Source: an uncultured Planctomycetia bacterium (lineage in GTDB: Bacteria > Omnitrophota > Gorgyraeia > Duberdicusellales > 4484-171). From it: DNA of 64,000 nucleotides. This document shows, piece by piece, positions 1,967-31,100 of this stretch (positions are counted from its first letter, which is position 1; the number at the start of each line of letters is the position of its first letter). Below the pieces are notes generated by a model. The model had not been told where the DNA came from and searched no databases. It saw only the letters and a list, made by a program, of their open reading frames with translations. The stretch spans positions 396,878 to 460,877 of the forward strand of contig CAZVQU010000002.1 in the NCBI GenBank assembly GCA_964629655.1, read 5' to 3'. Position numbers and translations under genes: made by a program.

Positions 1967-1977
1967 TCGCAGGTTAA

Positions 1978-4179: not shown

Positions 4180-4199
4180 TTTCTTATTTTTCTCCTTGA

Positions 4200-7100: not shown

Positions 7101-10100
7101 AGGCAAGATCGAGAAGTTGGCCGCTGACTTAATCGTGCTGGCAGTGCGTCCGGTATCGGTAATCCTCAGTCTCACTGTAGTATAAAGATACTCGGGGATA
7201 GTCCAACTAAGAGTTGTCAGCTCATTATTTACATTATCAGCAATGGTGTGGATGTTCTCCTCGGTAAGAAAGTTATCATTAGAATACTCTATGATCAAAT
7301 CATCTGCCAAAGCACCTTCGCTACTCCAGCTAATCCACTCTGAATCTCCTACTGTCCATGTCTCTCCACCGTTAGGTGCAACCAGCGTAAACGTCGGTGC
7401 AGTAATGGCGAATACACCGGGAGAAACATCCTGTGGCGTATCAGCCCGTCCCATATCGGTAATTCTTATCTTGCAGGTTCCGGCAGCTGCACCGGGATCA
7501 GGAACCTCCCAGGGGTAAACACCGTCATTGTCCTCATTCTGAGTAACCATACTCCAGCTTCCGCCGCCATCAGTACTATATTGGATTCTGATATTGTTGG
7601 CAGCGACTGAACCTACTGATGTCCAAGTAATATCATGGTCAGTGCCCATTCTCCATTGCTCCCCACCGACGGGTGAGGTTACAGTAACGGTCGGTGAGGC
7701 AATAGCTAAGACGGCATCGGAAGTATCTGTTGTCGCTATGCGGTCACCGTCATACACCTTCACCTGCACAGTTTCCGAGGTATCATCAGGAATGGTCCAA
7801 GGATAAACACCATCATTAGCCTGATTCTGAGTAATAGTTGTCCAATCTGTGCCATTCTTAGAATACTTCAGCACAAGACTACCATCATGCACAGAGCCAT
7901 TTGTACCTACCGATGTCCAGGTAATATCATGGGCAGTGCCGACAATCCAAGACTCAGCACCATTAGGTGCGGTCAAAGTAAGAGAAGGTTCAACGATATT
8001 GAACACAGCATCGGAAACATCAGTAGTAGTAGGCCTGAGTGGATCGGTAATCCTGATTAAAGCTGCAGCTGTTGCACTATCCTCAACTGTCCAAGTATAG
8101 GTACCTAAAGCAGCAGTTACTCCAGTAGTAATTTCGGTCCAATCTGTGCCGTTATTAAGAGAGTATTCTATAGTCAATGGATCTACTGCGCCTGTCTTTG
8201 TCCAAGTAATTGCATAATCACCAGTAGCATACCAATCCTCTGCTCCATTAGGTGAGGTTAATGTTACCTCCGGTAACTCAATCTGAAAATAATCAGCAGA
8301 TATTCCTATAACATCTTCATATCCGGACTCATTATCGCTAATCCTAATCTTAGCTGTATTAGTAACATCTTCGGGCACATTAAGCCAATTAAACGAACCA
8401 TCATTAACTGTGTCACTAGTAATACTATTCGTATCGTCGACAAAGTCATCCTTAGAATACTCGATCTTTAATCCATCATCGGCAACTTCATCACCGTCAG
8501 TACTCCATTGAATCTCATAAGCATCAGCAACGGTTACCAGTTCTCCACCGTTAGGCTGAATAATATTAATACGTGGCCGAGAAAGAATAGTAAAGTTATT
8601 GTCAGAGTCATCTGTAACAGCATTCCTTTCATTATCAGTAATACGTACCTTAACTGTTGTTGACTCATCATCAGGTATAGTCCAGGTGTAACTATTTACT
8701 GCTTGTTCAGCTGCCGGAGTGCCGGCTGTCGGCTCTGGGTCAATAAACTTACGTCTCTCATAGTGGGCTGTGATTTCATCAGCACTAAGGGCCCGGTTGT
8801 AGACAGTTAGTCCGTCCAATTTTCCTGCCAGATACGTATCCGAATCACTCCTCTTAAAAGAATATAAAGCCTGTGAGGATGTTGCAATTGGGCTACTCCA
8901 AGCTTCACTAGCGACCTCACTGCCATCCTTGTAGATTTTTGCATACGTGCCATCTGTTACCCAAGCTAAATGAACCCATTGATTAGTTCCAATAGGAGTT
9001 GAAGTTTCTGCTCGCTTGGCTGAATTAATCCAAAACTCTAAATACCCATCAGAAGTTATATCACATGCAATCTGATCTTCACTCGCCCATGCATGCAATG
9101 TGCCTACGTTAGTGCTGCTCGGATATGAGGTAATATAAACCCATTGTGTATTAGTGGTATATGTTTCACCTGAAAAAAGATTATTTGCTACAGTCATATA
9201 ATCACTTGTGCCATCAAAAGAAAGTACGCTACCAGTAGAGAATGTGGTAGGATCAGTGTCTGCATCCCAGGTTGCACCGGTGATGGTACCAGTATTTCCC
9301 TGTCTTGAGGAGTCAGCTGCAGTTGTGCCGCTACCCTCATCCAAGTTCCAGACACCAATTAAGCCGTTTCCAATATCATAGTGTTCTCTTATCTTCTCAG
9401 CTGTAAGCACATTGCTATGCAAACGCAATTCATCGATTCTACCACCGCAATAATCATCATTGGCTTCGCCTACTCTAAGAGCGGTGGTATCAACTCCTGA
9501 ACTTGTAGTCACAGCAACATGATTCCAACCAGCAGATAAGTCTTGTGAGCTTGAATCAGCATTAACGTAGATAGTCGGAGAAGTAAATCCGGTTGCGGTA
9601 ATCGCTCCCGAAGCTATTGATATATATATTGTATCATCGACTAATTCTAAAATTCCATCATCGCTATTATCATTATTCACCCAGAATTCCACTGTCTTTG
9701 TATCTGCGCTGATATCGCCGACATCTGTATAGGCATCGGTATCGTTAAAGACTAATGAACCTCCTAATTTGCCGGTTGACCAGTCTGCTCCTGACACAGG
9801 CGAATCTGTTATATGGTGCTGGGTTGCGTCTGAGTCATTGAACGTTCCGTCGTTACCTTGCCCTGAACTATCTGAAATCACAGTCTGGTCAGTTACATCT
9901 GTTTCGTCAAAGCTATAGAGTGCAACCAAGTCGGTTTCATCACTAAATACTCCATTATAATGCTCAGTTACTTCACTACCACTTAAAGCACGAGTGTAGA
10001 TGCGGACTTCGTCAATGGAGCCGGGAAAAGGTATAGATGGCGGGGCTGTAGTCGCATGCGCCCCTATGACAGCTGAATAGGTGTTACCGGTTACGCTTTG

Positions 10101-13100
10101 CAACCCCTCGGAATCGGTCCCTCTTTGAACCCCATCTATGTATAACGTCCTAGTGGCACCGTCTACTACAGCTACTAAGTGATGCCAATTATCATCATTG
10201 TACCCAGCACCAAGTTTATGTGTCAGCCATGTGTGGCTGCCGCCGGCAGGAGGAGATGTTAAAAATCCTAAATAGCCAAGATCATCGTTATTGCCAGCGT
10301 CAGCATTTATGACTAAGCTCAACAGAGTTTCTGGTGCGGCAGCTCTTTTTAAGCTGAGTACGTACCTACTTACAGCAGATGTATATTTTAACCACATAGA
10401 AACCGTTATAGTCTGTAAATTATCTCCTATAAGATCATTTGTGGAGCCTAAGTCTACATAATCATTCACACCATCAAAAATTAAAGCCGAAGGTGTACCA
10501 CTAATGGTTCCATCGTTCCCCTGACCGGAAGAGTCAGCTGCAGTTAGGCCAGAGGCATCATTAAACAGCCATTCTCCTACCATGCCGCTGGTAGAAAGAG
10601 TACCTTCAGGGTATTTGGTCATAGCATCGTCATAGCTTGAACCACTAGTTGCTGTGGAATTATCATAATACATAAAGACATAGCTGGTTCCGGCAGGAAC
10701 CTCGGGTACCTTAACCCAGATCTCTGTATCAGTGGTATCAATGGTATTCGGAACAAGATAGTAGGAACAGAGATTTGCGGTATCATCCTTAAATCGAATA
10801 TCATCACCGTCAGCTTGCATCTTTCCGGCAGCGATTAAAGCTTCGGTATCCAGGGTAAGCTTAAACTGATAGTTATAAGCCATATTACCGGTATTGGTAA
10901 TAGTAACCTTCTTGCCATAACCATATCCTGGCACAAGACCGGTAGTAGGGATAACTCCATCATATATAGTATGAGTATCACTGGCGAATCCATCCTTAGA
11001 ATACTCTAATAATAAATCATTGCTTACTTTTCCTTCCAATGTCCAGGTAATCTGTTCTTCGTCGCTATAGACCCAGACCTCGTCGCCATTAGGCGCAACA
11101 AGAGTAACCGTAGGCGCAGTAATAGAAAATGGATCTGATACGACCTGCCGTACAGTATTGGTATCTCTATTTGCCGGAACAGCTGACTCCACTATCTTGA
11201 CTTTGGCTTGCGCAGTTTGACTATCAGGGGTTAGCCAGCTATATGTACCGTTATTTGTTACATCCGCCTCTACCAGAGTCCATGTTGAGCCGTTATCCGA
11301 AGAATAAGAAATATCCACTGTGTCATAGAGCCTACCGGTCCTATCCCAGGTAATATCGTAAGTATAACCGATCTTACGCTCATCTCCGGACTCTGGAGAA
11401 GTAATCTCCATAATCGGAATGGCGGCAATTGCAAAGTTGGCATCTGAAATATCATAATATTCGATTCCTGCTTCTATTGCCGAAAGGCTGTAGACTTTTA
11501 TCCTTGCTGTAGTAGAAATATCCGAAGATAACTCGAAGCGATGGTTATATGTTTTTGATGCTGTCTGGCCAGTATCAATAGAGTCCCAATTGTCGCCATC
11601 CCAAGGTTCCTCGTCAACAGTAGTATATTTAACTATAATGTCGTCTGAAACTGACTCATCAGATGCCCAGATAATATTATGACTTGTCCAAAGCTCCCAT
11701 TCATCACCGCCATTAGGCTCACTCAAGGTAAGCGGAGAGGCAACTGTAATGGTATTAGAGGTTACATCGTAAGTGCTATCATCAGCATTAATGGTCAGGG
11801 TTTCTACCGTGTTACTCTTAAGATAGACCGTGGCCTGGCCATCGGCTAGGGTATAAGTAGTGGTTTCAGTAACATAAGTATCATCGGTATAGAAAGTGGC
11901 ATTACCGGTATCAGTTAAAGTAAGCTCGGTGCTTGAGTCAGCAGTAACCACGTGATCCATCTCATCATAGGCAGTAACTGTCTCTGACCAACCGACAGCT
12001 ACTTTCTGGGGAGTGGTAGTGGTAATCGTATAATAAGTTATCGGCCTAGCCAGAATACTAAAGTTATTGTTAGAAGGATCATTAAATATCCGGTCAGCCT
12101 CAACACTATCGGTAAAGCTGAACTTTACTTCATTCAAAGTTGGCGTATAACCTCTATTTCCGGTGCCAAGATAGGCCTTATATTTAAGGTAGCGCTTGCT
12201 ATCTAAAGAAACCGGCATGTCTGTACCTGAGGTAGTAAAATAATCAGTGATTGTACCCTCAGCCCCAATAAAGTTATCCCAGCTTGAACCATCATCGCTG
12301 CCGGCAAGTTGGAATTTAACTTCTTGCCCCGTATACAATAAGAGTATTTCATCAGCAGTCAGGGCACGATCGAAGACAGCAACTTCGTCGATGATACCGT
12401 CGAAATATTCATCTACATCTTGTGTTCCTCGCATTGTGCTTTGATAAAAACCTGCGCCCTTGTCACCATCATGTCCAATTACATTACCTGCACCACCAGT
12501 ATTCCAAGTATATGCCCCTGGATTTGTAGCCACTTCAACACCGTTAATATAAAGTGTCATATCCGACGATGATTTTGAACCGGTTAAATGTACCCATTCT
12601 CCTGGTGTAAGTGCTGATGGCGAAGTAACAGACTCAGAGGTACTTCCTTCTCTTGTTACAAACATGACAGTTCCGTCATTCTTTATGCCTAATACTGCAC
12701 CATTCGAGGCACCTCCAAGTTGATAAATTGCCTGCCAGCTATCCACACTGTCTGGCTTAACCCATGCGGTAATTGAAATGGTTTCTTGGTCGGTAGATTG
12801 AGTAAAGAATCCAGAAGAATACCCGATGTCAACATAATCATCGGTGCCATCAAAGCTCAAGGCCCCACTACCTACTCTGTAATCTGAAGTTTCCCATGTT
12901 GCTCCGGTTATTCCACCATCGTCAGTTCCTTTGCTATCCCCGGCTACCGCTCCACCACCTTCGTCAAGATGCCACAACGATACTAAACCACTCATATCTG
13001 TAGAAATTAGGCCTCCTGCTCCTTCTGACTCGGCCGGAATAGTGGCATTCCAATCTAATGTTCCATATTCTTCGGTACCGAGGGTATCAATTGCCCGGGA

Positions 13101-16100
13101 GGTAAAGGTACCTGAAGAAGAATAAACATCTGATTCTACTCCACTACCACTATTGTAAAGTGTTTGGATTTCTGCCAAAGACAAGGCACGGTTATATATA
13201 AGAACCTCATCGATAGAGCCGGTAAAGTATTCCACGAGAGCGTCATCAGACTGCCTCTTTCCAACTCCCATTGTAACCGCCCGAGTGGTATCACTAGTAT
13301 CAGCACTGTATGCAGATATGTCTGTCGCTGAAGCTACAGCTACTGCATCGAGATAGCCCTGTAATTCATCAGATGCCCGATCTACCACTAAGGCATACTG
13401 ATGCCACCCAGTATCGTAATTATCCCCGAGCTTTTTATTCATAACTTCGGTTCCGCCTAGACCTACAATATACCAAATCTCTCCGCTTGACCTTGGCGAA
13501 ATTCCCCAACCATAAGCACCGCTCCCTACGCAATCTCCTTTATTCACAATTCTTCCTGTTGTTTGTGCACTGCTTTTTGCCCATGCCACAACTGTAAAAC
13601 TGCCAGTACCAAAATCCAAACTCGCACCATTTCCAGAATCCACATAATCATTCCCATCAAAACTTAAAGCCGCAGCACCAAGCTTTTCACTAGCTGTATT
13701 CCAGGTGGCTCCAGTGATTGTCCCGTTATTACTCCCAGAGCTATCGGCCGCTGCTGTGCCAGTGCCCTCATTAAAATGCCAAGCACTAACTAAACCTATA
13801 GACACTCCACCAGCATCACCCAACGTCACCCCAGCATCATTACCTGTCCCAGAAACCTCCGTATCAGAATGGGTACCAAGGCCAAACTGGTCAGCACTGG
13901 TATCAATTAATTCCTGATAAAAAGTATCCTGAACCTTTACCTTGGCTGTAGCTGAAGGATCATAGGGCACTGTCCAGGTATAAGAAGTATTTATATCTTC
14001 ACTACCTAAAACACTGGTTACCTCGGCCGGATCAGGAGGTGTAATCACAGAGCTGTCTGAACTCACCGAATCATTTCCGTAATGCATATAGATAGTAGTG
14101 TCTCCAGTTGGTATCGTGGCCAGCTCAACCCAGACGCTGGTAGAATCGGTATCAATCCCGGACTGGAGCCAGTAAGAAAGCTCTTCGCTTGAGACATTAG
14201 TAAAACGAATATCATCGCCGTCAGCCTGCATCTTACCGGCAGCGATTAAAGCTTCGGTATCAAGAGTAATCTGCACTCCGTAGTCATTAAACACCTGACC
14301 GGCTGCATTAGTCAAGGTAGCCGGACGACGATAACTAAATGTGCCATCGGTAAGCGCATAATCTACACCGTAGTGGTCAATAGCAGTAGCTATAGTATTA
14401 GGATAAGTTGCGCCGCTGTCGGTTGAATAATACAAAGCCAAAAGATTAGAAATAGGCCCGCTATAATCCCAGGTAATACTATATTCTTGTTCAGTATCCA
14501 ACTCAATGGCTGCATCAGAAGGAGTAAGCAGGGTTAAGGTCGGAAGAACCATACTGAATACAGCATCGGAAACATCAAAGATTCCGGTGTCATAACTGTC
14601 TTCTACTCTTACCTTGGCTTCATCAATAATATGTCTGGGCACTGTCCAATCAGCATAAGGACTAGAATTAGCTATTGAATCAGCAATAAGTATTTTCTGC
14701 CAGCTGCCGTCACCGGTTGCTGAACCGACAACTAATGTCGGCTCAGGATCAGCCCGGCCAGATGCAATATCAAGAGTGGCAGTTTCTCGATGGGCATCAA
14801 CACTGCCATAATATAGGTAAATGGTAGTCTCAGCAGCTGAACCCGGCAGACTATCGGCCTCAAACCAGATATCAGTAGTAGCGGTGTTAATACCCGAAGC
14901 AATCCAGTAATTAAGTTTTGCGCTAGCGGCATTAGTAAACCGAATATCAGCTCCGTCTTCCTGCATCTTGCCGGCGTTGATTAAAGTCAAGGTATCAAAA
15001 TCATCTACCATAACTGTATAGTCAGTTAAAGTGCTACCGTTGTTAGTAACAGTAATAGGCACACGATATTGCAAAGAATCCGAGCCTACAGTATAAGGAT
15101 CTTCTGAACCGTCATCTATATCAAGATAATGCAGGTTGACATTGGGAATAACGCCGGTAGTGGTAAAGGTAATGTCGTGGTCGCTACTAACAGTCCACTC
15201 TTCTGTTCCATCAGGCGAAGTCATAGTTAAAATAGAAGGAAGAATAGTAAAGTTAGCATTAGATTCATCATAAGTACCGGAGTCGTTAACGTCTTCTATC
15301 CTGACCTTAACCGTAGTAGAGTCAAGATAGGGTATTGTCCAGCTGTAACTATCATCGTTGGCAGTTGAAGCAATAGCAACATTTTCAAAGGTGCTGCCAT
15401 CAATAGCATATAATAGTTTTACATTAACCACCGGGCCCACATGAGTCCAGGTAATATCATGGGCTGAGCGGGTTCTCCAGCTCTCTGTGCCATTGGGGCT
15501 GACTAAAGTAAGTGTGGCTCCCACAGTAAATGAGCGCACAACTGAGGCTTTACTCCACTCAGCTGAACCGGCAGGGTCAATAGCGTAAGCTTTCCAATAA
15601 TAGGTATCATCCCTGGTTAAATTACTCTGAAGAGTATAAAAAGCATGTGTACCTGAAGAAGAGGTAGTAGCATAAGCTGTATTTGAAGCTGCATCCTGTC
15701 CTGACCATCCAGTCTGAGATGAAGTCTGGTCAAAAGTCTGCAAGCCAGTGGTAAAATCAACATCTTCGGCAAGCAATATTTTAAATTGAGCCGGAGCATC
15801 AATTCCGTGGGTAGTATAGAGCTCAAATATCGGCCTGACCGGCTCATAAGCATAAGTATCAGCAGGTAAAACAAGAGTAGGCGGTGTACAAATATAATCA
15901 ATAGATACGGTACCGTCATTACTACCGGTTGCACCGCTGCCATCATAAGCGGTCATTGTCCCAGCAAATGTTGCCGGTGAACCATCTTCAGCAGTAAGCC
16001 TAATCCTGCCGCCGCCGCCCAAGCCGCCTTCACCAGCAGCAGCACCACCCTCGGCAGTAATAATACCAGCACCATCCAAAGAACCAACAGCAGCATAAAT

Positions 16101-19100
16101 ACTACCACCAGAACCGCCGCCGCCGTCATTGGCAGCATCATCGCCATCACTTGATAAAAAACCATCTACAGTTAAAGTATTCAATATTGCTAATACCATA
16201 GCGCCGCCGCCGGCACCACCATCGTCTGAACCGCCACCGGAACCTAAGTCAACCGGAGCAGTATTTGAGCCGTAAGTAGTACCACCTGTGCCGCCATCGG
16301 TAGAGTCCTCACCAGCACCACCATAGCCGCCGCCAGCACCATAGGTCGATGAACCAGTACCGCCGGCGCCGGTACCAAGATCGTGGATACTTCCCTGGCC
16401 ATTAGCGCTAAGAGAAGCTCCGACACCATCTACACCATAGATATTAATATTATCAGCAACAATCGTACCTGAACCTGTAGTTGTTGTGGTAGTTACAAAT
16501 AAACTATCATTCATCGAATAATAAGAAGCTTTTAACCATGCCGCAGAGCGAGGAGTGCTGGAGATACGGACCTCATCGATTGCCCCCAGAAAAGGATTTT
16601 GGTCATTATTCGCTTGATTCCAATACCCGCCAATAGTTACAAGTGCGTCTGTTTGTCTGAGAGTGCCTCCGGTAGCCCTTGAGCCTACCTGACGGCCTCC
16701 GATATAACTAACAAGGGTATCGGTAGCCCCGTTATATACAGCACTCACATAGTGCCATTGATAAGTCACACTACTACGGGCAAGGCCATAGTTCTCTAAC
16801 AGATAGGCAGTACCAGTGGTATTTCTAACATCATTCCGTAACCGACCATCAGTCCTTATATCCATGAAATAAGACCAGTTAGTGTTAGCATTTGGGGCAC
16901 CTTTGGCAACTATTAATCTGTAATCGCTACTATAATTACGAACATAAATCCAGGCTTCCAAAGTGTATTGGTCTCCGACTAAATCCAGACTAGCACTATC
17001 AGGAATGACTATAGCATCACCTGATCCGTCAAAGTCTAAACAATCGCCAATTTTACCGGATATCAAGCCTTTACCGCTGGAAGTCATTAAACCCCTGGCA
17101 GTACCATCATTGTCATTATCGGTAGAATCAATTATTTGTGAGCTGGTTGGGTCTTGATTCATATGCTGAACCATCACATAATTTGCATCATCCCATACAC
17201 CAGTAATATTCTGCTGGTCGCCAGCTGCCGCATTCTCGTAATACATATAAAAGACAGTATCGACACTACTACTTATCGAAGGAATCTCTACGTGGGCAAT
17301 CAACAGCTCATTTCCGGCAGTATCGATATATTTTTCTATCTCATGGTCTAGCTTGGTCTCACCGTCTGATGCCGTAAATAAGATATCATAACCGGTTGAA
17401 AGGGCGGCACCAAAGACGCTAGAGTTAGAAGAATCAAGCCTAACTAAGACCGGAAAGTCAGCTAAAGTCTCATCAATTAAATCACTATTAATAATGAATT
17501 TCTGCGAAGATAGCCAATCGACGTCATACCAGGCCGGAGGGACAGCATCGGCTAAGTCCAGAGATGCACTTCCCTTGATTAAAATCTGAGCAATATCATA
17601 ATTTGCATTCTCTGTGCCGATATTGACATCACCCTCAACACTTAAGGTATAACCACCTGGTATGCCTAATCTAGCATCATTAGCTACATTAACTACATCA
17701 AAGTTAATAGTCGAAGAGGAACTGTCAAAATTATCCTCGGGTAGATGAGTAGTAACATTGACATTAGTAAGCAAATCATTGTTCTTGATTCGCAGCTCAC
17801 CATAAAGATTGCTATCATCAGTATCATCTAAAAAGATAGTGCCGGCTGCACCATATTCGGCACCATATCCCCATCCACCAAGGCTATTAATACCTCCTGT
17901 GGAAGTATTCTCAGCATAATAAATAGCAATCCTTCCACCGGAACCGCCGCCGCCGTCATTGGTTTGATCATTTCCGCCATTTCCGCCATTAGTTGAAATA
18001 GTACCTGATCCGGTTATGGTGTCAGCTATAAGATAAATACTTCCGCCCGAGCCTCCACCAGCACCATACTGGGAACTTGTGCCTCCGTCAGTTTCTCCAG
18101 CTGATGCATTAGCCGTAATGTTGCCACCAACACTTAAGGTACCACCAGCAGTTAGTTTTACTACTCCACCACCTGTGCCTCCGTATCGGTCATTATAATA
18201 AGTACCTCCGCCTCCTGAACCTAGATCAACCGGCTCAGTAATCGAACCATAGACGTTACCTGCAAGACTATTGTAGGAATCGCCTCCCTTACCGCCATGG
18301 CTTGCTCCGCCACCACAGACAGCCCGGGTACCATCATTACCAGCTCCACCACCGGGGCCGTTACCAGTTCCGGGAACTCCCAAGCCGCCGCGATACCCCC
18401 TGTTATCGACATTAATATATCCACCGACGGGTATGGTAATACCTCCGGTTGTTTTCAAAATCAAAGAGTAGACATGCTCAGCATACTGTGAGTAATGACT
18501 TAAGGTTGCTCCGGCGCTAATGCTGACAGAAGAAAAGGTCGGATCAGTAGTAACATCTTTGTGAATATTCCAGTAACATGTGCTTGATGTAATAGCAAGC
18601 GCGGCTGATGATGTAGCCAAGGTAGCAGCTTTTTCCTGGATATATCTACCTCCAGCATCTAAGGTAAAAGTAGTATCCACTGTTAAAGATCCGGCATTAT
18701 TATCTAATACCCCGTTATTATCAATAGTAAGGTTAGTTGAAGTTAGAGTATCTCCTGCGGAAAGCCTAAGCTTGGCCTTTTTATCAATAGTAATATCATC
18801 AAAGGTATAAGTTCCATCTACTAAATGAGTATCTACATCGGAATTCCAATCGTTATTGCCAATGATTAACTCCCCATTGGTCTGAGCCGGCGTCTTCTTG
18901 TAGACTGTGCCGGCAGCTCCATAATATGTTTTATATCCCCGTCCGCCATAAGAATTAAAGGCTATGCTAGAATTATCAGTAGTATAGTAGATAGCAACTC
19001 TTCCGCCGGAACCGCCGCCACCCCACTGGGTGTCAACTGCACCATCGCCACCATTAGCTGAGATATTACCTGTTCCCTCTAAGGTAGGAGCGATAATATA

Positions 19101-22100
19101 AACACTTCCGCCGGAACCGGCGCCTGAAGAAAACCAAGTAGGATTTCCTCCATTAGCAACTCCGTTTCCTCCAGTGGCTGTAATGTCACCATTAACCGTT
19201 AATGTCCCGCCGACAGTTAGTTTTAGTGCTCCACCGCCTGCACCGCCGGCTCGGCTAGTACTATAAGTACCTCCGCCGGATGAACCTAAATCAACCGGGA
19301 CAGTAATTGAACCATAAACAACATTTCCTACTCCGTAGCTACCGCTACCCATTGCGCCATAGCCGCCATAGCTTGCTCCGGAAGCAGATGCATACTGATT
19401 GCTATCCGTGCCTCTTCCACCACCTGACCCATTGCCGTCTCCGGCAGCAACTCCTGAATAGCCATCCCCATTGACAGCAATAGTTCCTGCTGCGTCCACA
19501 GTTACATCTCCGGTAGCCTCTAAAATTAAAGAATAGGTATGGGTATCAGTATTAGCAGAATGTTTTAGGGTTGCTGCTGATGGAATAGTAATCGCTGAAA
19601 AAACTGGTTCAGAAGAAATATCCTCAGGAACATCAAAATATCCTATACCCGATGAAACAGTAAGTGTCGCTGCTGACACATCCAAAGTAGAGCTGGCACC
19701 ATGGATATATCTACCATCATCAGCTAAGGTGAAAGTATTACCGACAGTTATCGAACCGCCACTATGGTCTAAGACAGCATCTTCTTTTACGGTCAGATTA
19801 TCAAAAACAATAGTTCCGGTTGCATAAGGGGTATACAGTCCGACATTGTTATTGTTGTCCATAGTTAAATCGCCATTAGTCTGGCCGTCATCTTTTTCAT
19901 AGATTGTGCCGGCTCCGGCTCTTTCTCCGGTAGTATAGCCTGAACCGCCAGCAGCACTGAGAGTCCCAGCAAAGGTATTCTCGGTAGAATAAATAGCAAT
20001 TCTTCCGCCTCCTCCGCCACCGCCATCCCAGGTGTCATCGGCAGCATTACCACCATTAGCAGAGATAGTGCCTGATCCGGTTATAGTGTCTGCATCTATC
20101 CAGATACTTCCGCCTGAACCGCCGCCTCCGGTATAAAGACTAGCGTTGCCTCCGTCTCTGATTCCAGCTCCTCCGTTAGCAGTTATAGAACCGGCAACTG
20201 TTAAGGTGCCGGTAACAGTCAACTTAACGGCCCCGCCGCCGTCTCCTCCGTATCGATCATTAAGAACAGTACCGCCGCCTCCTGAACCTAAATCTTCAGG
20301 TTCTTTAATAGAGCCATATATACTTCCTCCTGACAACTCATTAGCCTCAGCATTATAACCATCGCCACCGGGGCCGCCATAGCCACCGCCGGAACCACTT
20401 ACGATGGTAAGGCCACCGTTACCACCACCGCCACCTGCGCCGCCATCGCCTCCTTCACCGGTCCCGGGATTGCCAATACCACCAGCAAAACCTTGGGCGT
20501 TAACGTTAATTGCACCGGTGATCAAAGCATCACCGCTTACAGTAATGTCGAGCCAATAAACCTTGGTATCATCATTAGGTGCATGCCCTAAGGAACCACC
20601 GGCTTCAATCTCAAGATAGTCAGTAGTTAAGGCTCCGTTGTAGTTACTGGCATTTTTTACAACAAATTTATCAAAGTCAGCGACTATAGCATCCATTGCT
20701 GCAGCTTGAGTATAAGTGCTATCTGTTCCTCCTGAATCAAGGATTAATTCTCCAACAGTCTGACCATCAGTATCCTTTTTAAAAATCGTACCTACGCCAC
20801 CCCTTTGACCAGTAAGATATCCTGTTCCGCCACCAGCGCTCAAGGCCCCTGTGTGGGTATCAGCAGTAGTATAATAAATAGCAATTCTTCCGCCTCCTCC
20901 GCCACCGCCATCCCAGGTGTCATCCTGAACTCTACCGCCGTTAGCAGTGATGTCACCTGCTCCGGTTATGGTGTCAGCTGTAAGATAAATACTTCCACCG
21001 GAACCGCCGCCACCGGCATACCAGCTACTTGTTCCTCCATTGTAATACCCATTTCCTCCATTGGCAGTAATGTTACCGGTAACAGTTAAGGTATCGGTTA
21101 CGGTTAGCTTTACTGCCCCGCCGCCGGAACCTCCATATCCAGTACCGGAAGGAGTTGCCCCGCCGCCTGAGCCTAAATCAATAGGTGCGGTATAAGAACC
21201 GTATGTAGAAAGTGACGCGATCGCATTACCATAGCCCCGGCCACCATAACCGCCATAATTTCCTCCACAAGCAGATACGTTAACATTGCCATTAGAACCT
21301 CTTCCACCACCATCACCGACGCCGTGGCCAGGAGTACCTACGGGAGCACCAGAAAAGCCCTGTTCATTAACATCAATATCACCGGTAATTACAGCATCGT
21401 CGGTAACAACAATCTCAAGCGAATAAGCCTTGGCTACCTGGCTAACCTGATGCATCTGATGACCAAAGATAGCACCGGCCTGGACATCCAAATCGGCAGT
21501 GGTCAAAAGTCCATTATAGTTGGTAGCCTGTCGCACAATTACATTATCAAAGGATCCAGCCACAGTACCGGTAGCAGCAGCTAATTGATAAGTACTATCT
21601 ACTCCTCCGCCTTGCAGAATTAACTCGCCATCAGTATGGGATGGGCCTTTTTTATAGATTGTACCTGTGCCTCCTCGCTGAGCATTATCAGTTCCTGCTC
21701 CACCATAAGCAGTGGGCTCTATTGAAGAATTATCAGCAGTAGCATAATGAATAGCAATTCTTCCGCCGCCGCCGCCGCCGCCGTCATCTTCGTAATTACG
21801 TCCATCACCACCATTAGCAGTAATAACGCCATCTCCGGCTAATGTGTCGGTTTCAATCCAAATACTTCCACCGGCTCCGCCGCCTGTACCTTCAGCGTAA
21901 CCGCCTCCATTTCTGCCATTGGCGCTAATCGCACCAGTAACAGTTAATGTGTCAGTTACGATAAGTTTTAATTCTCCGCCGCCTGAACCTGTAGAGAGTT
22001 GACCAGAGTTCCATCTATATTCACTGCACCCGCCACCTGAACCTAAATTAGCCGGCTGGATAGCAGAACCGTAAGTACTGCCTCCTGCTACTGAGCTGCT

Positions 22101-25100
22101 CTCGTTACCCCTGCCACCGATGCCGCCATAGCCACCGCCTGAGCCACCTTTGGTTTGAGTGCTATCCCACTCACCAGAGCCGCCGCCGGGTCCAATACCA
22201 GTACCGGGATTTCCAGTACCATGACTGAAACCCTGATAACTAACATTAAGTTCACCGGTAATTACAGCATCATCAGTAACAGTAATCTCCAGTCTGTAGG
22301 TTTCGGTATCCTCACTTAGCTGATGCATTTGATGGCCAAGGACTGCGTCTGCCTGAATATCTAAATCCACAGTATTCAGAGTTCCGTTGTAGTTGGCAGA
22401 ATTTTTCACAATCACATTATCAAAAGCCTGATCAGTATTTTGCACTCCGCCAGCCTGATTATATACAATGCTGCCTGTTCCTTCACCATATAAAGTCAAA
22501 TCTCCGTTAGTCTGGCCATCAGTATCTTTTTCAAAAATTGTACCTACGCTTCCCGTTTGGGCAGTGTTTCCTCCAGAACCGCCATAAGCAGTGGGAACTA
22601 TTGAAGAATTATCAGTAGCATAATAAATAGCAATTCTTCCGCCAGAACCGCCGCCGCCATCCTGATTAGTATCAAACCCATCACCACCATTAGCAGAAAT
22701 GACACCATCTCCGTCTAATATATCGGTTATAATCCAAATACTCCCGCCGGAACCGCCGCCAGTACCTTCATCATTACCGCCTCCGTCTCCACCGTTAGAA
22801 GTAATTGAACCAGCAACAGTTAGGGTGTCAGTAACGTCCAGTTTTACTACTCCACCACCGGATCCAGGAGTATAATTCTGTCTATAAATATCTCCTCCGC
22901 CGGAACCTAAAGTAATAGGCTCGGTAACAGACCCATAAGGACTGCCTCCTAATTCTGTAGAGTTAAAATAACCCCGTCCGCCATAACCAGCATGGCCGGC
23001 GCCATTACCGCCTCTGTCATAACCTTGGGAATAAGCACCTGCTCCAGCGCCGGTACCAACACCATCTCCAGGGTCGCCAGCGCCGGCAGCAAAACCCCTA
23101 TCATTAACATTAATCTCGCCAGTAATCACTGCATCGTCATCAACCTCAACAGTAAGCCAATAGGTCTTATCAACCTCACTAGGCTGATGGAGCTGATGGC
23201 CAAAGACAGCGCCGGATTCAACATCTAAATCCACAGTAGTCAGAAGCCCGTTGTAGCTAACAGTATTTCTGACATTTACATTATCAAAGAGTTGGACAAT
23301 AGCAGTTACGCCAGGAGCCAGACTGTACGCGGCACCGTTGGCTCCACCATCTAAGATTAAATCTCCGTTAGTCTGAACACCGTCATTCTTATAGATTGTA
23401 CCTACGCCGCCTCTTTGGGCATTGGTCCCTCCAGCACCACCATAGGCAGTAAGATCTCCGTCAAAAGTATCAGTAGTATAGTAAATAGCGATTCTTCCAC
23501 CAGAACCGCCGCCGCCGTCATCCTCCCAGTCGCCCCCATCACCGCCATTAGCAGTGATGCTACCTGATCCTTCTATGGTACCAGCCACTATCCAGAGACT
23601 TCCACCTGAACCGCCGCCGCCACATTCATAGTAAGCCACTCCATTGTCTCCGTCAGCGTTAATCGAACCAGCAACAGTTAAAGTGTCAGTTACGGTGAGT
23701 TTTAATTCTCCGCCGCCTGCACCGCCATTGCCAGGGGTAGCGCTTCCTCTGTAAGTAGAGCCTCCGCCGCCTGAACCTAAATTATTTGGCGTAATAACAG
23801 AACCGTAGCCACTGCCTCCTATGCTATTCTGATCGCCTTGACCGCCAATACCACCATAACCGCCGCCAGAGCCGCCTCTGCAATAACAAGCATCATAGCC
23901 CCCATCGCCAGCACCAGTGCCTATACCGTCTCCGGGATTACCATTGCCGCCAGAAAAACCCTGGCCATAGACACCAATATCGCCAGTAATTACGGCATCA
24001 TCTGTAACGGTAATATTAAGAAAATAGGTCTCCTCAATTTCAGAGCGTTGATGAACCTGATGGCCAAGGGATCCGCTGGCCTGAACATCTAAATCCACAG
24101 TAGTCAGGGCTCCATTGTAATTAATATAATTTTTGACAATCACATTATCAAAAGTCTCACTCAACTCACCCACACCAGAAGCCCGTTTGTAAGCAATGCC
24201 TGTTCCTCCACCATCTAAGATTAAATCTCCATTAGCCTGGACACCATTGTCTTTGTAGATAGTGCCTGCACTTCCTCTTTGTGAAAGGCTTCGGCCGGAA
24301 CCGCCATAAGCACCTACCGTCCCTTCAAAACTATCAGTAGTATAATAGATGGCAATCCTTCCACCGCTTCCTCCAGCGCCATCACGATTATCATCACCTC
24401 CGGAGCCACCATCAGCCTTAATATTTCCGGTTCCAATTAATACCCCCGCATCTATCCAAAGACTTCCGCCGGAGCCGCCGCCGCCGGACATATAGCTACT
24501 GTGGCCTCCGTTGATTGAGCCATTTCCTCCACCAGCAGTAATATCACCGGTAACAGTTAAAGTACCACCAACGATAAGTTTTACTACTCCACCACCGTCT
24601 CCTCCCCAGATATTAGGAGAGCGGACTCCGCCACCACCAGAGCCTAAATCAACAGGCTCAGTCACCGAACCGTAGCTTGTGCCTCCTGCGGTTACGTTAG
24701 CAGCATAGTAACCGTTAGATATACCGCCACCGCCGCCATAACCTGCTCCACCTCCACCTTCATCGTAGTCGCCATTGCTACCGTAACCTGCTCCAGTACC
24801 AAATCCTTCACCTGTCTGATTAGCCAACGATCCATTAGTGTCGCCATAACCTCCGCGAAAACCACGACTACTAACATCGATATATGCCCCGTTGTTTATG
24901 ATCAAATCATTGGTTGTTTCCAGGATTAAAGAGTAGGTATGGCTATCGCTAGTGGTATGGTCATAATGAGTTAAGGTTGCCCCCTGTGCTATGCCTCCGG
25001 ACGAAAAAAGAGGTTCGGTTCCAACATCTTTTGAAATGTCCCAGTAGGTTATACCTGAGGTAGCATTAAGGGTAGCTGACGAGCCATCAAAGGTAGCATC

Positions 25101-28100
25101 AGTAGATTGAATGTATCTCCCACCAGCTAAGGTACAAGCAGCATTAATAGTTAAAGTGGCGTCATTATTATCTAAGAGCACATCGGTATCAAGGGCAAGG
25201 TTAGCAGTAGTTATTGTATCACTTGCTGAAAGTATTACCTGAGCGTTGTCTTTTATGTCGAAATCCTTAAAGGTATAGGTTGCATCGGGAATAGGCGTAT
25301 CCGCCGAACTAGCGCTACCGGTATTATTGGCAACAGTTAAATCTCCATCCTGGGCAGCATCCTTTTGATAGATTGTGCCGGCTCCGCCAATTTGTGAGCC
25401 AACAATCCCTGAACCGCCATAAGCAGTGGGCGTTATCGTAGAATCGTCAGTAGTGTAATAAATAGCAATTCTTCCACCGGCTCCGCCGGCTCCATCGTAA
25501 GTATCATCTGCGCCATCGCCGCCATTAGCAGTGACAGCGCCTGCACCTTCTAAAACATCAGCATCTATCCAGATACTTCCACCCGAGCCGCCGCCTGCGG
25601 ATATCTGTGAGCCATAGCCTCCATTCATTTCACCATCTTCTCCATTGGCAGTAATATCACCAGTAACAGTCAAGGTACCTCCGACAGTAAGTTTTATTGC
25701 TCCGCCGCCGTCTCCTCCCCAGCGATTAGTAGCGCGACTTCCGCCGCCGCCTGAGCCTAAATCAACCGGGGCAGTGATAGAGCCATAAGCTATACCGCCA
25801 GCACCCGTATAACCAGAACGACCAGCCGTTATTCCACCTTCACCGCCATAACCTCCTCCGCCGCCGCCGCGCTGATATTCACCGTCAGGGCCGTAACCAC
25901 CGCCAGTACCAAAACCCGAGCCTGTATTGCCGGTCACCGATCCCTCAACGTCACCGTAACCTCCGCTATAACCAAGATTATTAACATTGATATAGGCTGT
26001 GCTGGCTAAGGTAAGGTCTCCGGTTGTCTCAAGAATTAAGGAGTAAAGATGAGTGCCAGTGCTGACATGATCAGAATGAGTCAAGGTTGCTCCGGCTGAA
26101 ATACTGCCGGAAGTAAATATAGGATCACTAGCGACATCCTTAGAGATATCCCAGTAGTTTGTGCCTGAGGTAAAGCTAATGGTAGCTGCTGAGCCATCAA
26201 AGGTAGCATCAGTAGATTGAATATGTCTACTACCCGCCATAGTGTAAGCAGTATTAACAGTTAATGAACCGTCATTATTCTCTACGGTAGCATCGCTAAT
26301 GGTAAAATTGTCAGTAGTTACTGTATCACTTGCCGAAAGTGTTATATGAGCGTCTTCTTGTACAGTAATGCTATCAAAGGTATAAGTACCATCTACAAAA
26401 GGAGTGTCTCTGCCGGAATTATTATTGTTAGAGGTAGTTAGGTCACCGTTAGTCTGTCCATCATCTTTTTTAAAGATTGTGCCGGAGCCTGCCCTTTCAG
26501 CATTGTCTCGGCCTGAACCACCATAAGTACTGAGAGTAGCTAAAGAAGAAGTATCTGCAGTGTAATAAATAGCAATTCTTCCGCCGCCGCCACCGCCGCC
26601 ATCCCAGTTGTCATTTCCACCATCGCCACCATTAGAAATAACCGAACCTGTCCCATCTAAGGCACCGGCATCTATCCAGATACTTCCGCCAGAACCGCCG
26701 CCAGTAGCCCTCTGGCTACTAGCACCTCCATTGTTAGTTCCTGCTACGCCATTGGCAGTAATCGAACCGTTGAGAGTGAAGGTGTCTAAAACTACTATCT
26801 TTAATGAACCGCCACCTGCGCCACCAAGTCGGTTATTACTATAAGTGCCTCCACCACCTGAGCCTAAATCTGTAGGTTCCTTAATAGAACCATAGGGCTT
26901 GCCGTATTCCGGTTCGATGCCACTATAACCCTTGCCACCCTTACCACCATAGCCTCCTCCCGAACCAGAAATAAGAGCTGAGCCATTATTACCTCTTCCT
27001 TCGCCCTCCCCGGGTCCATAACCATTTCCGTTGTCTGTGTCTGAGAAGCCACCGGGATAACCAGTACCATTTGCTGAAATAACTGCACCGGCATCAAGGG
27101 TAAGATTGGTGGCGATAATTGTAATCTGTCCGGCACCACCGGCTTTATTATATGAATCAACAGTTAAAGTAGTTCCGCTAATAGTTAGGTCTCTATAAAC
27201 AGTATCATCGGTTAAAGTAATCGGAGCGCTGATAGTAGTAGAACTTGTATCATCGGTCATGCTAATATTAACATCAGCAGCTACATCGGATAGATACTGT
27301 ACTATATAATCAGAGGCACTATGAATACGAGAACAATTGTACTCTGAACCTTGAGTTTTTGCAGTTCCGTCTACTGATAGTTGAATCATCTTGATGGGGT
27401 CACCATAAGCAGTCTGAACTTGAGGTGTAGAGGCTGATGAAGTAATATAGACCTCATCGATTAGGCCTTCAAAGTTATTGGTACCAGAAGCATCTTTGGC
27501 AGAGAAGAAGATATTAGTGGCTAAACTGGGAGCGGTTAAGGATGCGGTTTCTGAGCCCTGCTCCCGGCCGTCAACATATATTTTATAGACATCATTGGTA
27601 TAATCCCATGTAAGCCTTACATGGTGCCACTCGCTATCATAATAATCACCGGTAGTCTCAATATCGTTATTGCCCTCTAATTCAAAGACCAAGTTACCCT
27701 GGTTATCAAAACTCAAGGCAAGATTGTCATTGTTATAAAAAATATACTGGGCCGCAGGAGAAGAATCACTGCTCTTTAACCAAAGGCTTAAGCTTCCGGT
27801 AGCAGCAACAATATTTGAAGCCGAGGCAACTTGCACATATTCATCGGACGCATCGTTTAGAAAACCATTTCCCACTAAGGCTGAGGCAAATGAACCACTG
27901 CTGGTTACACTGCCAGTACCGGCTCCTGAATACTGTATTCCGCTGCCATCACCATTCCAATATAAGGTTAAATCCGAATGAGGTTTGGCATAGCTACCGG
28001 CAAAATCAGAGTGGTAAGCGCCAAAGGGAAGAATTGCGGCATTATAAATATATATCTCATCAAATATACCTTCGGCATTATCAGTTCCGCTAGTCTTATA

Positions 28101-31100
28101 ATCACCGAAGAAAAAGCTAGTTCCCAGCACAGTCAGTGCTGAAGTAGTATCAGTATGGGTCTGGGTGACATACTGGCCATTGTAGTAGATACGGCAAACA
28201 TCAGTTGCTGTATCATCCCAGGTAAATCTTAAGTGGACCCAGCCATTAGCCTTCCAAAGAGAATCATCAGTCTCGGTAATAGTGACTGAAGACTGATTGC
28301 CTGCTCCTTTGATGCCGAATTCCAAAGTGGCCTCATCTGTATCATCATAGACCCTGGCCCAGATGGCATTGGCTGTACCTGAAGCAGCTGAGCCAAAGAG
28401 ATATTTGGCCTCGGTCTGGGCAGCGGCAAAATCATAATTAGGTCGGTACCAAAATTCGATTGTCCCCTTAGACCAGTCAGACATAATATTAGCTGAAGTT
28501 ATAGCCAAGTTCTCAGCGTCATCCTTAAGGTTAAAGCCGGTGCCGCGCTGGGCAGTTGCAGTAGTGATATTAGTCTCAACTGCTTCTGAAGCTGTAGCAT
28601 CTCTATTAGCTGTACCTTGGGCGTTATCTACTGTTGTGCCAGTTGTCTCATCCAAACGATAATGAGCTAAGATGTGATTTGCCGATGCGCTACTTGGATA
28701 GGCCTCACGAGCCATAAATATTGGTTTATACTTAGTCTGCCCTGAGCCGTCTAAACCAAATAAAAACTTATTATCCTGAGTACGAACCCGGACTTCATAA
28801 GAACCCTCTCCTTCATTAAAACCATCGGCATCGGCATCGCCGCGGGCTGCAGTCTCAACAGTACCAGTAACTATAGATACGGTACCGGGATCCTGATAAT
28901 CAGTGATTTCTCCGGTAGCAGTTGCAATCAGCTCAATAAGCTGAGTATCGTAATAGGTGGCGGTACTTCTTCCTGCCGCCGGAGTTGAAGGATGATACCC
29001 GCTCATGCCGGTAGCCACGTAATCGGTTGCATCATCATCAACGCTACGGGCTTCGGTGCCGGCCAGCAGCTTCTCATATTTTATCCGTTTGATAATCTTA
29101 CCAGTTGAGTAAATAGTCCACTCCTCAGTTACAGTGGCCTCACTGGCAAGAGAAAATTTATTCTCAACCCTGGCCCGGGTAGAATTAGCCTCTAAGAGTT
29201 TTAAGACAGATGACGAATCAACCTGCAGGGCTGAATCCTGGTCTAATTCGGTTAAAAGTTCTGTGGCTGAGCCGTAGTTTGTACTCCAGGCGCTGCCGGT
29301 TCCTTTGTAAAACTCAGAAACACCAGCGTCAGCTTCTTTAAAGACCAGCTTAAAATCTGAAGTGGTTAGCCCGGCGGTTTGAATAGTAATCGTTCCTGAA
29401 GCCTGGGTTGCTGATAAAACCGGATCAATAACGATATCGCCTGCTTTTCCGTCTTCATAGAACCAGACCCGGCAGGTAGAAGCCTTGTGAGGATTGTTTT
29501 CATTAGTGCCGGTTAAGCGCTGAGCCCTGGTTTTTTTCCTTTTTTTGCTTCTTTCGCTCTTCTTAAAATCTTTCCAATCTATTAAGACATTATCAAACTT
29601 TTCTCTGGAAACTTCTCCCTCAACGATTTCTTGTTTCGCGGCGCGTAAGAATCTCTTTACCTTTCTCTTGATCCGACGACGGACATTAGCATTGTCCTTC
29701 TTAATCAAGCCTTTTTTGTTAAAAACCGTATCCCAACGCACACGCTTCTTTGCTGAGCCTAAAGCTTGGTTATCACCTTCAACTGAGAACTTATTGTAGT
29801 ATTTTTCTCCGTCAAAACCTAATTGTGCAGTTACAGTGCCCTGAGACGATTTATTGTAAATGGTAACCGTTCCGTTATCATTTTCGCTATAGGATAATTT
29901 GCCTTTCTTAGGTTCTACATCTTCCCACTGCCAGGGGAACGTACCCATTTTCTGTATATAAAACCAGGAGTTTTTGACCTTTTTCTGGAAACCGTTTCCT
30001 GCATCCTCAAGCAAAGCAATACCCTTTCTAGTAAAGACATATTTCTGGACACCGTTTAATGATTTTAATGAAACCTCGTAACGCCTAGGAGAGACTTCTT
30101 CGAATATATAAGGGACAAATTTTCCTGCCTCGTTTTTAAGATAAAAATCCTCAGGTGCGCTCTGGGAATTATATACAATCACGCCAAAACCCTGAGCTGA
30201 GGCTACTCCCGGCTCAAAATCAGGCTGAGTTACTGATTCTTCAAGAACTCCTTCTTGGCTGACTACATCTTCCGGGCTGATTGCTTCTTGATCTGTGCCC
30301 TCTTCTGTCTCTGCCAGAGCTGCTGCTTGATCTGGTATAGTATTAACAATAAGGATATGCCCGTCTTTAGTGGTTATGCCGCAACGGTTTGTAGCCGTGA
30401 CAAAGATATTTGCGGTTACATCTACATCCTCAGGTATTTTATACTCAACAGCATAAATGTCATCACCGTCGTCATCATACATTGGAGTTACACCCTCGCC
30501 GCCAAAAGGTGCAAAGTTACAGCTAACTGAAACAATATCGGAATTATTATCGCCATCAGCCGAATTATCCCATTTGATTACCATTGAATCTCCGGCTATG
30601 TATACCCCCTGAGTGCCTGTGGCTCCGGAACAATCGACCTTAACCGAGCTCACCTTTGGAGCTATGGAATACTCTAATTTAAGTTCCTCAAGCTTAGGGG
30701 TGGCAGTAGTGTTACCGGTAGAAAGATTGACCCGCAGTGACAATTCTTTACCAACACTAAAATCATCCATCCCGGTATAGGTCATACCACTTTCACAACT
30801 TTCTTTCCAGTTCAATCCTCCGTCTGCTGAGATATCCATACTTATGGCTTGCGACTTACTCGCACTCTTAAGAGTATCACTTGCCAGTTTTATTGTCGGA
30901 GTAATTGCTGTAATATTACAGGCAGTAGAAATAGGCTCAGTGGTATATCTGCCTAATGAGGAATAGGCACCTTCAGTTGCTTTTAATACCACATCTCCAT
31001 TATCGGAAACTATAGTTTCAAAAAACTCTGCTAATCTAATATTTTCTTGATCTGCTGATGAGCTGACATAAGGCTCGGTTTCAACATATTTGCGCACTCT

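Follow-up and report, generated by a model that had tools for sequence, protein, structure and literature searches.

What is built by a long array of glycine-rich repeats in the middle of a giant gene? The question is raised by a 64,000-nucleotide (nt) stretch of contig CAZVQU010000002.1 from an uncultured bacterium, hereafter the window, in which one open reading frame (ORF) codes for a protein of 9,419 amino acids (aa). A previous interpretation of this DNA, the sequence-only reading, had reported about ten repeat units at 17650-27150, that is, at about aa 1770-4936 of the giant ORF, and had likened them to PATR-type parallel beta-helices. This observation is real and well above chance, but idealised. 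Our results make it probable, albeit well short of certain, that the region forms the stalk in the middle of a giant adhesin-like fibre protein, exported and encoded next to secretin genes, in which the units would stack into a continuous, rigid, single-chain beta-solenoid of roughly 50 nm.

Anatomy of the repeat array

Internal repeats were found by fragment-versus-protein BLAST; a self-BLAST of the whole protein gave the self-match alone. Each 200-aa fragment from aa ~1740 to ~4890 has 8-9 other matches in the same protein, with identities of 40-68%. The motifs RIAIYY, DLGSGGG and GGSGGS occur 10-11 times each (10 RIAIYY-like strands and 11 copies of DLGSGGG), and the RIAIYY-like strands follow one another along the array at 369, 371, 288, 286, 292, 291, 295, 334 and 356 aa. 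Units were delimited by MAFFT alignment, which yielded the expected ten, U1 to U10 (Table 1), together with a degenerate eleventh copy, U11, that had previously been missed.

In each unit, a variable spacer of beta-strand-like character leads into a Gly-rich core of ~215 aa that is conserved. Spacers measure ~75 aa in the short units, U4-U8, and 120-155 aa in the long units, U2, U3, U9 and U10, and it is the spacer that sets the class: short-class spacers share 47-64% aa identity and long-class spacers 41-57%, whereas spacer identity between the two classes is ~20%. Therefore, the two subclasses proposed earlier can be retained (41-64% within a class versus ~20% between), and so can the length of ~288 aa for the five middle units, which range from 287 to 293 aa. 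The long units, previously put at ~400 aa, are shorter than that, namely, 367, 372, 333 and 358 aa. Their extra segment does exist, as TYTFD...ITV in the ~150-aa spacer of U2 and U3, with TYTFD intact in U2, U3 and U10; in U9, TIVFD stands in its place and the segment has lost 21 residues. Core identity, in contrast, is 45-65% in all unit pairs, whatever their class.

The core itself has two parts. First, there is a Gly block of ~85 aa (residues 87-168 of U4), which can be written as GFSGG..GPG.G.G.GGG...GGSGGGYGG.GG...YGS...P.DLGSGGG. Second, there are three mutually homologous coils of ~35 aa, each consisting of GGGxGG, a long strand and G.G.I.A.GG.G, whose homology is recovered by hhalign with probabilities of 92-96% and E-values from 4e-9 to 7e-7; the same method detected no relation between the Gly block and these coils. 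When the ten units were aligned with 36 single-copy homologues, many glycines together with P148, S153 and R246 (in GGRIA) were found to be invariant in all 46 sequences, and Y142 and H57 nearly so.

Periodicity and age of the array

Autocorrelation of the DNA over U4-U8 peaks at a lag of 864 nt, or 288 codons (z = 8.5). Side peaks flank it at 858-876 nt and recur at about double that lag, a further peak at 105 nt corresponds to the 35-aa coil, and none of these peaks is present in a control stretch from within the ORF. Self-comparison, by fragment BLAST and by autocorrelation, thus reveals the repeats that had been anticipated, but the period is not the strict 865 nt that had been described: successive RIAIYY motifs in the middle of the array lie 864, 858, 876, 873 and 885 nt apart, with a modal value of 864. 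Likewise, the HQxHQ motif attributed to all five middle units has only four occurrences, in U4-U7, with spacings of 864, 864 and 873 nt, and U8 carries GHAPND where the others have HQxHQ. In the 36 homologues the first His alone is conserved, as [LIV]-T-H in 28 of them, the remainder of the motif being local.

The moderate DNA identity noted earlier was also recovered, every pair of cores being 56-67% identical in codon alignments. Over the same pairs the mean proportion of synonymous differences (pS) is 0.59, near saturation, while that of nonsynonymous differences (pN) is 0.32, and Tandem Repeats Finder reports no long-period DNA repeat, although a period above 500 nt, with copies only ~60% identical as in this array, is beyond its reach. 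A recent tandem expansion is rejected on the grounds of this low identity and of the nearly saturated synonymous sites; thus, an old array kept by selection, as the sequence-only reading had it, is supported. That pN is well below pS further suggests a constrained fold.

The history of the array can be read from the closest relatives of its units. First, U2-U10 find their closest relative within this protein, at 48-62% identity, versus 36-45% for the best external domain. Second, U1 is as close to an external protein, P0008 (50%), as to its nearest internal relative (48%). Third, U11 is 55% identical to the module that follows LamG in the external protein P0078. This suggests that the interior of the array expanded in this lineage and that the terminal copies are older; the interior units would have arisen by old duplications within the lineage, the fold being maintained while synonymous sites became saturated. 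P0078 is a 'LamG domain-containing protein' of a Hyphomicrobiaceae metagenome-assembled genome, with the LamG-to-module junction as in aa ~4990-5525 of the giant protein (window 15885-17492), and such a junction, shared at 55% identity, argues for an old and conserved arrangement.

Predicted fold and length of the rod

For structure prediction of U4, AlphaFold2 was given the 46-row alignment of the 10 local units and the 36 homologues, which are 34-44% identical to U4. The mean predicted local distance difference test score (pLDDT) was 90.5 and the predicted template modelling score (pTM) 0.91 for U4 alone, and 90.2 and 0.91, respectively, for U3 and U4 together (long plus short, 660 aa). Hence the short and the long unit were predicted as a confident solenoid rather than as disordered chains, and the beta-helix part of the PATR-like proposal stands at the level of prediction. 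Regular strands are present in the spacer of the U4 model. The Gly block is modelled confidently yet contains almost no strands as assigned by DSSP. Beyond it lie strand pairs at residues 175-191, 211-226 and 246-261 and a single strand at 278-282, a placement that agrees with the coil period of ~35 aa. In the model of U3, the long spacer is a regular run of strands forming about six coils of 20-28 aa. Since a pTM of 0.91 over two units implies a fixed geometry between them, that is, a continuous rod, the models support the view that consecutive units form one continuous rigid beta-solenoid.

From the DSSP strings we count ~13-14 coils in a long unit and 9-11 in a short one, which makes ~100-120 for the array. 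With 0.48 nm for each coil, the array would form a rod of ~50-60 nm, about half of the ~100 nm suggested by the sequence-only reading; we infer this length from the coil counts, and not from model coordinates.

Foldseek searches of the Protein Data Bank (PDB) gave no significant match, the best E-value being 1.5 with a single unit and 0.08 with the pair, and the template modelling (TM) scores 0.27 at most. Even so, all of the weak matches are beta-solenoids (single-chain beta-helices), in line with the predicted fold; among them are the two-partner secretion (TPS) domains of EtpA and HxuA, pertactin, Ag43, Hbp and Fap2, tailspikes, PL6 lyases, pectate lyases, LpxA/GlmU and ice-binding proteins. 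The last of these raise the question of whether the solenoid binds ice, or some other flat surface, through Thr ladders (KLTVTDTLTVTG), in the manner of the giant ice adhesin MpIBP. Its strands are indeed Thr-rich, and FfIBP and 5uyt are among the weak matches, but with non-significant E-values of 3 to 6; moreover, Thr-rich strands are common among beta-helices and the module shows no bias towards cold habitats, which leaves this possibility a very slight one.

In BFVD, a library of predicted viral structures, a single clear structural neighbour was found, A0A7S6NY19 (entry A0A7S6NY19_2), with E = 9.6e-9, a TM score of 0.60 and a root-mean-square deviation (rmsd) of 3.7 Å over 253 columns at 27% identity; the other matches are Gly-rich 'collagen-like' proteins with rmsd values above 12 Å. 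A0A7S6NY19 is annotated as a 'PA14 domain-containing protein' of the prasinovirus Bathycoccus sp. RCC716 virus 1. This viral protein, whose structure is itself a prediction, probably carries the module too, so that the module would also occur in giant viruses of marine algae.

Polyglycine-II bundles have been proposed for PE_PGRS proteins and are seen in glycine-rich domains of ALK type. The solenoid could be an artefact of AlphaFold2, the Gly-rich region being flexible, disordered or otherwise packed, for example, into polyglycine-II bundles. AlphaFold2 is known to over-predict confident beta-solenoids for repeats (PMC11795689), the array is 23.8% Gly with runs of G up to 7, the Gly block is nearly strand-free, and the model resembles no solved structure. 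However, the units are diverged (45-65% identity) rather than perfect repeats, the 36 distant homologues keep both the hydrophobic pattern of the strands and the glycines of the turns, and the ratio of pN to pS is that of a constrained fold. In addition, the array contains no collagen-like runs of four or more G-X-Y triplets, and neither an ALK-type Gly_rich match nor a match to PDB sequences was obtained at E <= 10. On balance, we regard an artefact as unlikely.

Relationship to catalogued families

Searches of the ten units against Pfam-A at E <= 10 gave no match save one to GldM at chance level. PATR (PF12951, TIGR02601) is rejected, as none of the ten units matches it at this threshold in Pfam-A or NCBIfam, and there is no match to it in the whole protein at E <= 0.01. 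Searches with Beta_helix, Pectate_lyase_3, NosD and related models of the pectate-lyase clan were equally negative at E <= 10, and thus neither of the two kinds of profile hidden Markov model (HMM) against which the sequence-only reading had advised comparison recognises the repeat. The same threshold yielded no relevant match between the unit profile and PDB sequences. An ALK/LTK-type glycine-rich domain (Pfam Gly_rich) is rejected for want of a Pfam or PDB sequence match, and a collagen-like triple helix because the array has zero runs of at least four G-X-Y triplets.

The RTX beta-roll (PF00353, HemolysinCabind) merits separate consideration. Many giant adhesins, such as those of the RTX and LapA families, fold in a Ca2+-dependent manner, and the Asp-rich loops of the array could bind Ca2+ in a similar beta-roll or solenoid, so that the rod would fold only outside the cell. 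In accordance with this, Asp fills four columns of the GGDGxDDxxDGGGG loop in 6-9 of the 10 local units, and GGxGxD occurs 11 times in the array versus 3.2 +/- 1.8 in shuffled sequences. Like RTX and PE_PGRS-type repeats, the array alternates Gly-rich turns with short strands, with an acidic GGxGxD-like loop. However, no HMM match to RTX exists at E <= 10, and the nonapeptide GGxGx[DN]xUx occurs twice in 3,149 aa versus 1.4 +/- 1.3 in shuffles, which leads us to reject the RTX beta-roll as such; the array lacks the nonapeptide periodicity of these proteins, and its coil is ~35 aa long rather than 18 aa. Furthermore, the acidic residues are present in only 3-6 of the 36 homologues, and about half of these proteins are without that part of the loop. 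Judging from this alignment, the Asp-rich loop is specific to the lineage and not family-wide. A general role of these loops as Ca2+ sites, as first proposed, is thus not borne out, although a Ca2+ site particular to this lineage is possible; Ca2+-dependent folding of the rod is, in our opinion, improbable.

The single curated model that detects the module is NF047640, gliding_AgmC_N, of NCBIfam, which is not a model of the repeat but an equivalog-domain model built for a single myxobacterial protein; it represents the N-terminal domain of AgmC, a protein of adventurous gliding motility in Myxococcus. It matches nine of the ten units over the Gly-rich core, at profile positions ~230-400 and with a best E-value of 2e-6. 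Nevertheless, U4 scores 17.6 bits (E = 0.0014), far below the curated cutoff of 275, over only part of the 412-position model, and we treat the match as a remote lead rather than as membership. The module is therefore absent from Pfam and the PDB, and from NCBIfam apart from this sub-threshold match. Searches of the literature on AgmC, on DUF2341, LamG or glycine-rich beta-helices and on bacterial polyglycine II retrieved nothing on it.

The residues conserved across the 46 sequences also allow for another possibility, namely, that the units are beta-helices like those of polysaccharide lyases or hydrolases, each with a catalytic or carbohydrate-binding function, and that the array is a multivalent enzyme against the cell walls of prey or host. 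Arg246 is invariant and His57 and Tyr142 are nearly so, the weak fold matches include pectate lyases, PL6 alginate lyases and tailspike depolymerases, and cell-wall degradation has been proposed as a role for giant proteins of Omnitrophota (bioRxiv 10.1101/2023.11.21.568195). Against this, no lyase or hydrolase HMM matches the units, the fold matches are all non-significant (E >= 0.08, TM <= 0.27), and the invariant positions are nearly all Gly, with no acidic or metal-binding residues conserved family-wide; besides, arrays of 4-11 copies, as found in the relatives described below, are typical of scaffolds and not of enzymes. We thus find an enzymatic array quite improbable.

Distribution of the module

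A word-indexed search with U4 retrieved 192 relatives, mostly fragments with 2-3 partial copies, and in none of them does a Pfam domain cover the module. An exhaustive profile search of 1.84 billion cluster representatives (clusters at 50% identity) recovered 18,838 proteins at E <= 1e-3, of which 12,488 remain at E <= 1e-10 and 6,738 at E <= 1e-30. Among these, the top 150 matches are proteins of 1,400-7,100 aa with 4-11 copies each (median 6). From one module start to the next, the distance in their arrays is most often 260-280 aa, but a tail extends past 400 aa; the short and the long units seen here are therefore both within the norm of the family. The named genomes include many Verrucomicrobiota and Planctomycetota, together with Patescibacteria or candidate phyla radiation (CPR), Nanoarchaeota, Woesearchaeota, Bdellovibrionota, Elusimicrobiota, Armatimonadota, Chloroflexota, Bacteroidota, Nitrospiraceae and several Proteobacteria, from groundwater, soil, fen and gut-associated lineages.

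In four relatives scanned with Pfam, the partner domains are fn3, Big/Ig-like, CarboxypepD_reg, SdrD_B, SpaA, TSP3, LamG, CARDB and He_PIG. By their annotation, the partners in these relatives and in the giant protein are exclusively of extracellular scaffold, adhesion or lectin-like types, and none would be catalytic. DUF2341 was detected in only 3 of 150 relatives by single-sequence phmmer, a method too insensitive for partner domains. By eye, the relative P0125 (4,952 aa) joins a module array to DUF2341-like and LamG-like regions, the same combination as here.

A proposed stalk within a giant, probably exported protein

The array is embedded in a protein that has other recognisable domains on both sides of it. 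First, at the N-terminus, a hydrophobic segment of ~20 residues (Table 1) looks like either a signal peptide or a signal anchor. The start of the ORF is ambiguous, the listed TTG at 32459 being without a nearby Shine-Dalgarno site (window 32400-32640) and a GTG at codon 9 lying 4 nt past a Shine-Dalgarno-like AAGGTG; the segment is kept with either codon. Second, some 1,000 aa without annotation separate the first DUF2341 domain from the two LamG domains in front of the array. Third, beyond U11 comes a stretch of ~3,300 aa in which Ig-like repeats of ~98 aa alternate irregularly with more LamG domains (four) and more DUF2341 domains (three), and the C-terminal region of the protein ends in an acidic tail; a Pfam scan of the C-terminal 4,719-aa piece counts five LamG and three DUF2341 domains. 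Over all 9,419 aa, Pfam returns only LamG, DUF2341 and weak Ig-like or Sialidase-type matches, and none of the type V secretion domains (Autotransporter, TPS, ShlB).

The Ig-like repeats span aa ~5530-8850, with about ten consecutive copies at aa 7930-8790 that are mutually 30-46% identical and have weak Pfam matches only (Kre9_KNH, CHB_HEX_C, Reelin subrepeat B). DUF2341-LamG cassettes recur among them at offsets of ~1,140 and ~1,380 aa.

In the reading that we favour, the role of the stalk would be mechanical, holding the flanking LamG, DUF2341 and Ig-like domains away from the cell at a constant distance, within reach of a surface or of another cell that they could bind. Segment length would depend on the short and long spacers, and we speculate that the invariant Arg and the His clamp the Gly segments, which have no side chains of their own. 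The adjacent secretins may assist in exporting the fibre, and cyclic di-GMP (c-di-GMP) may regulate it.

Several points weigh against this interpretation. The solenoid fold is a prediction, made with a program that may yield confident yet unrealistic solenoids for repeats, as indicated above, and the sole structural relative, the Bathycoccus virus protein with its TM score of 0.60, is itself a prediction. Non-Gly residues that are invariant (R246, P148, S153) or nearly so (H57, Y142) could mark a ligand or catalytic site. Finally, the annotated ORFs of the window include no GspE, GspF or pilin genes and no known sorting signals, and the export route via the secretins is one that we infer.

Bacterial adhesins whose stalks are single-chain, right-handed parallel beta-helices, both autotransporter passengers (pertactin, Ag43, Hbp, Fap2) and TPS exoproteins (EtpA, HxuA, FHA), are the closest known parallel, in that an elongated solenoid of tandem coils, predicted in our case, forms part of a very large exported adhesin-like protein. 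The differences are threefold. First, the module has no significant match to them in sequence or structure, and the protein has no PATR, TPS or barrel domain. Second, their coils are of ~19-25 aa, whereas here they are of ~35 aa with two poly-Gly corners. Third, they have no counterpart of the ~85-aa Gly-rich block. Thus, a beta-solenoid stalk in a giant tandem-repeat surface protein is already known as a kind, whereas this particular module is uncatalogued despite its ~18,800 clusters.

Giant surface proteins of uncultured bacteria and archaea have repeats that no catalogued family matches, and for this reason most of them remain "dark matter". For the present repeat, boundaries, a consensus, a 35-aa sub-repeat and invariant residues are now defined, and a curated model would annotate thousands of large hypothetical proteins from Verrucomicrobiota, Planctomycetota, CPR, DPANN and Omnitrophota. 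A solved structure would add a type of beta-solenoid that has no solved relative at present, even if at this locus the array would be an old and ordinary-looking structural stalk in an adhesin-like giant protein. Two preprints on very long Omnitrophota proteins sort them by their Pfam content, and the one from 2026 (10.64898/2026.06.07.730766) defers the proteins that Pfam does not recognise; the module is described neither there, where 'glycine' and 'solenoid' appear zero times, nor in the earlier one (10.1101/2023.11.21.568195), where 'glycine' appears zero times. A bolder interpretation, which we consider possible but doubtful, is that the unit is the founding example of a large uncatalogued family (~18,800 clusters, with members in bacteria and DPANN archaea and in one or more giant viruses of algae) whose fold of 35-aa poly-Gly-cornered coils plus an ~85-aa Gly block has no solved relative. 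The block could then be a new polyglycine-II-like solenoid element, and the family may build long cell-to-cell attachment fibres of episymbiotic and predatory microbes.

Genes around the giant ORF

All flanking genes are on the same strand as the giant gene. Its upstream neighbourhood includes two secretin genes, a weak match to protein C of the type II secretion system (T2SS), a LuxR-type response regulator, a histidine kinase and a TPR protein; downstream are a response regulator with a GGDEF domain and a Peptidase_MA_2 gene (Table 1).

Table 1. Positions of the array, its units and other features in the window. The first base of residue i of the giant ORF is window base 32459-3(i-1).
Feature	Window position (nt)	Strand	Residues of giant ORF	Basis or remark
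Giant ORF	4200..32459	minus	9,419 aa	Single, uninterrupted, no internal stop
Hydrophobic N-terminal segment VALLVTLSLLVGLSLSLAIGS	32322..32384	minus	26-46	Past a long basic stretch; read from sequence by eye
First DUF2341 domain	31542..31796	minus	222-306	Pfam PF10102, E = 5e-20
Two LamG (Laminin_G_3) domains	27390..28562	minus	~1300-1690	Directly N-terminal to array; Pfam; internal repeat offset 204-224 aa
Array of 10 tandem Gly-rich units	17802..27248	minus	1738-4886	23.8% Gly; motif positions, fragment BLAST, MAFFT
U1	26448..27248	minus	1738-2004 (267 aa)	First unit of the array; has a short cap-like spacer of its own
U2	24231..26447 (U2+U3)	minus	2005-2371 (367 aa)	Long class
U3	24231..26447 (U2+U3)	minus	2372-2743 (372 aa)	Long class
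U4	19875..24230 (U4-U8)	minus	2744-3031 (288 aa)	Short class
U5	19875..24230 (U4-U8)	minus	3032-3318 (287 aa)	Short class
U6	19875..24230 (U4-U8)	minus	3319-3610 (292 aa)	Short class
U7	19875..24230 (U4-U8)	minus	3611-3902 (292 aa)	Short class
U8	19875..24230 (U4-U8)	minus	3903-4195 (293 aa)	Short class
U9	17802..19874 (U9+U10)	minus	4196-4528 (333 aa)	Long class
U10	17802..19874 (U9+U10)	minus	4529-4886 (358 aa)	Long class
DUF2341 + LamG pair	16500..17492 (approximate)	minus	~4990-5320	Between U10 and U11; Pfam and sequence
U11, degenerate 11th copy	15885..16442	minus	5340-5525 (186 aa)	Core only; fragment BLAST, MAFFT
C-terminal half: ~98-aa Ig-like repeats + LamG + DUF2341	5910..15872	minus		Pfam, fragment BLAST
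Secretin gene (Secretin + Secretin_N)	35679..37406	minus		Upstream of giant gene; Pfam
T2SS protein C-like gene	37403..38056	minus		Weak match, PF11356, E = 1.6e-4, below curated cutoff
Small MerR-family gene	38151..38378	minus		A little upstream of first secretin
2,263-aa protein gene	38534..45325	minus		Between the two secretins
Second secretin gene (P0276)	45336..47198	minus		~79% identical paralogue of first; Pfam, relatives search
Small MerR-family gene	47268..47522	minus		A little upstream of second secretin
244-aa ORF	3445..4179	minus		Directly downstream of giant gene
Response regulator with GGDEF diguanylate cyclase domain	2255..3151	minus		Downstream of giant gene; Pfam
243-aa ORF	385..1116	minus		Matches ATP synthase subunits

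The named relatives of the secretin, at 46-67% identity, all belong to Candidatus Omnitrophota/Omnitrophica or an allied candidate taxon, and for this reason a locus of Omnitrophota type is probable. An association of very long Omnitrophota genes with T2SS-like loci and with genes for c-di-GMP signalling has been reported (West-Roberts et al. 2023; bioRxiv 10.1101/2023.11.21.568195), with GspD, GspE, GspF and pilin-like genes ahead of the long gene and PilZ or GGDEF downstream of it. The present locus resembles these in part, in its secretins and weak T2SS-C-like gene upstream, its response-regulator-GGDEF gene downstream and its probable phylum, and it resembles the 'tandem-repeat scaffold' giants of Omnitrophota in its many copies of LamG and in repeats that are old rather than newly expanded. 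It differs in that the headline proteins are far longer than 9.4 thousand aa, and in that no dockerin, TSP3, GspE or GspF was seen here; no PilZ gene was seen in the window either.

A small helix-turn-helix gene of the MerR family precedes each secretin, directly upstream of the second and one gene farther upstream of the first. Two secretins, each with a MerR-family gene, suggest a duplicated secretin module. Between them lies the gene of a 2,263-aa protein that begins with a signal peptide, is K/E/L/Q-rich and coiled-coil-like in sequence and has a C-terminal TPR region. The protein has internal repeats of ~300 aa, for example, SLEGEKAVIVTLSGIEKNIE..ISQISSR.NQAKKKQD, found about six times, and its gene coincides with a strong AT skew at 38-46 kb.

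On the other side of the giant gene, the product of the 244-aa ORF has a signal peptide and a C-terminal transmembrane helix and no Pfam match, and could be an anchor or accessory partner. Farther downstream, the 243-aa product matches both ATP synthase subunit b and the delta/OSCP subunit, and appears to be a b-delta fusion.

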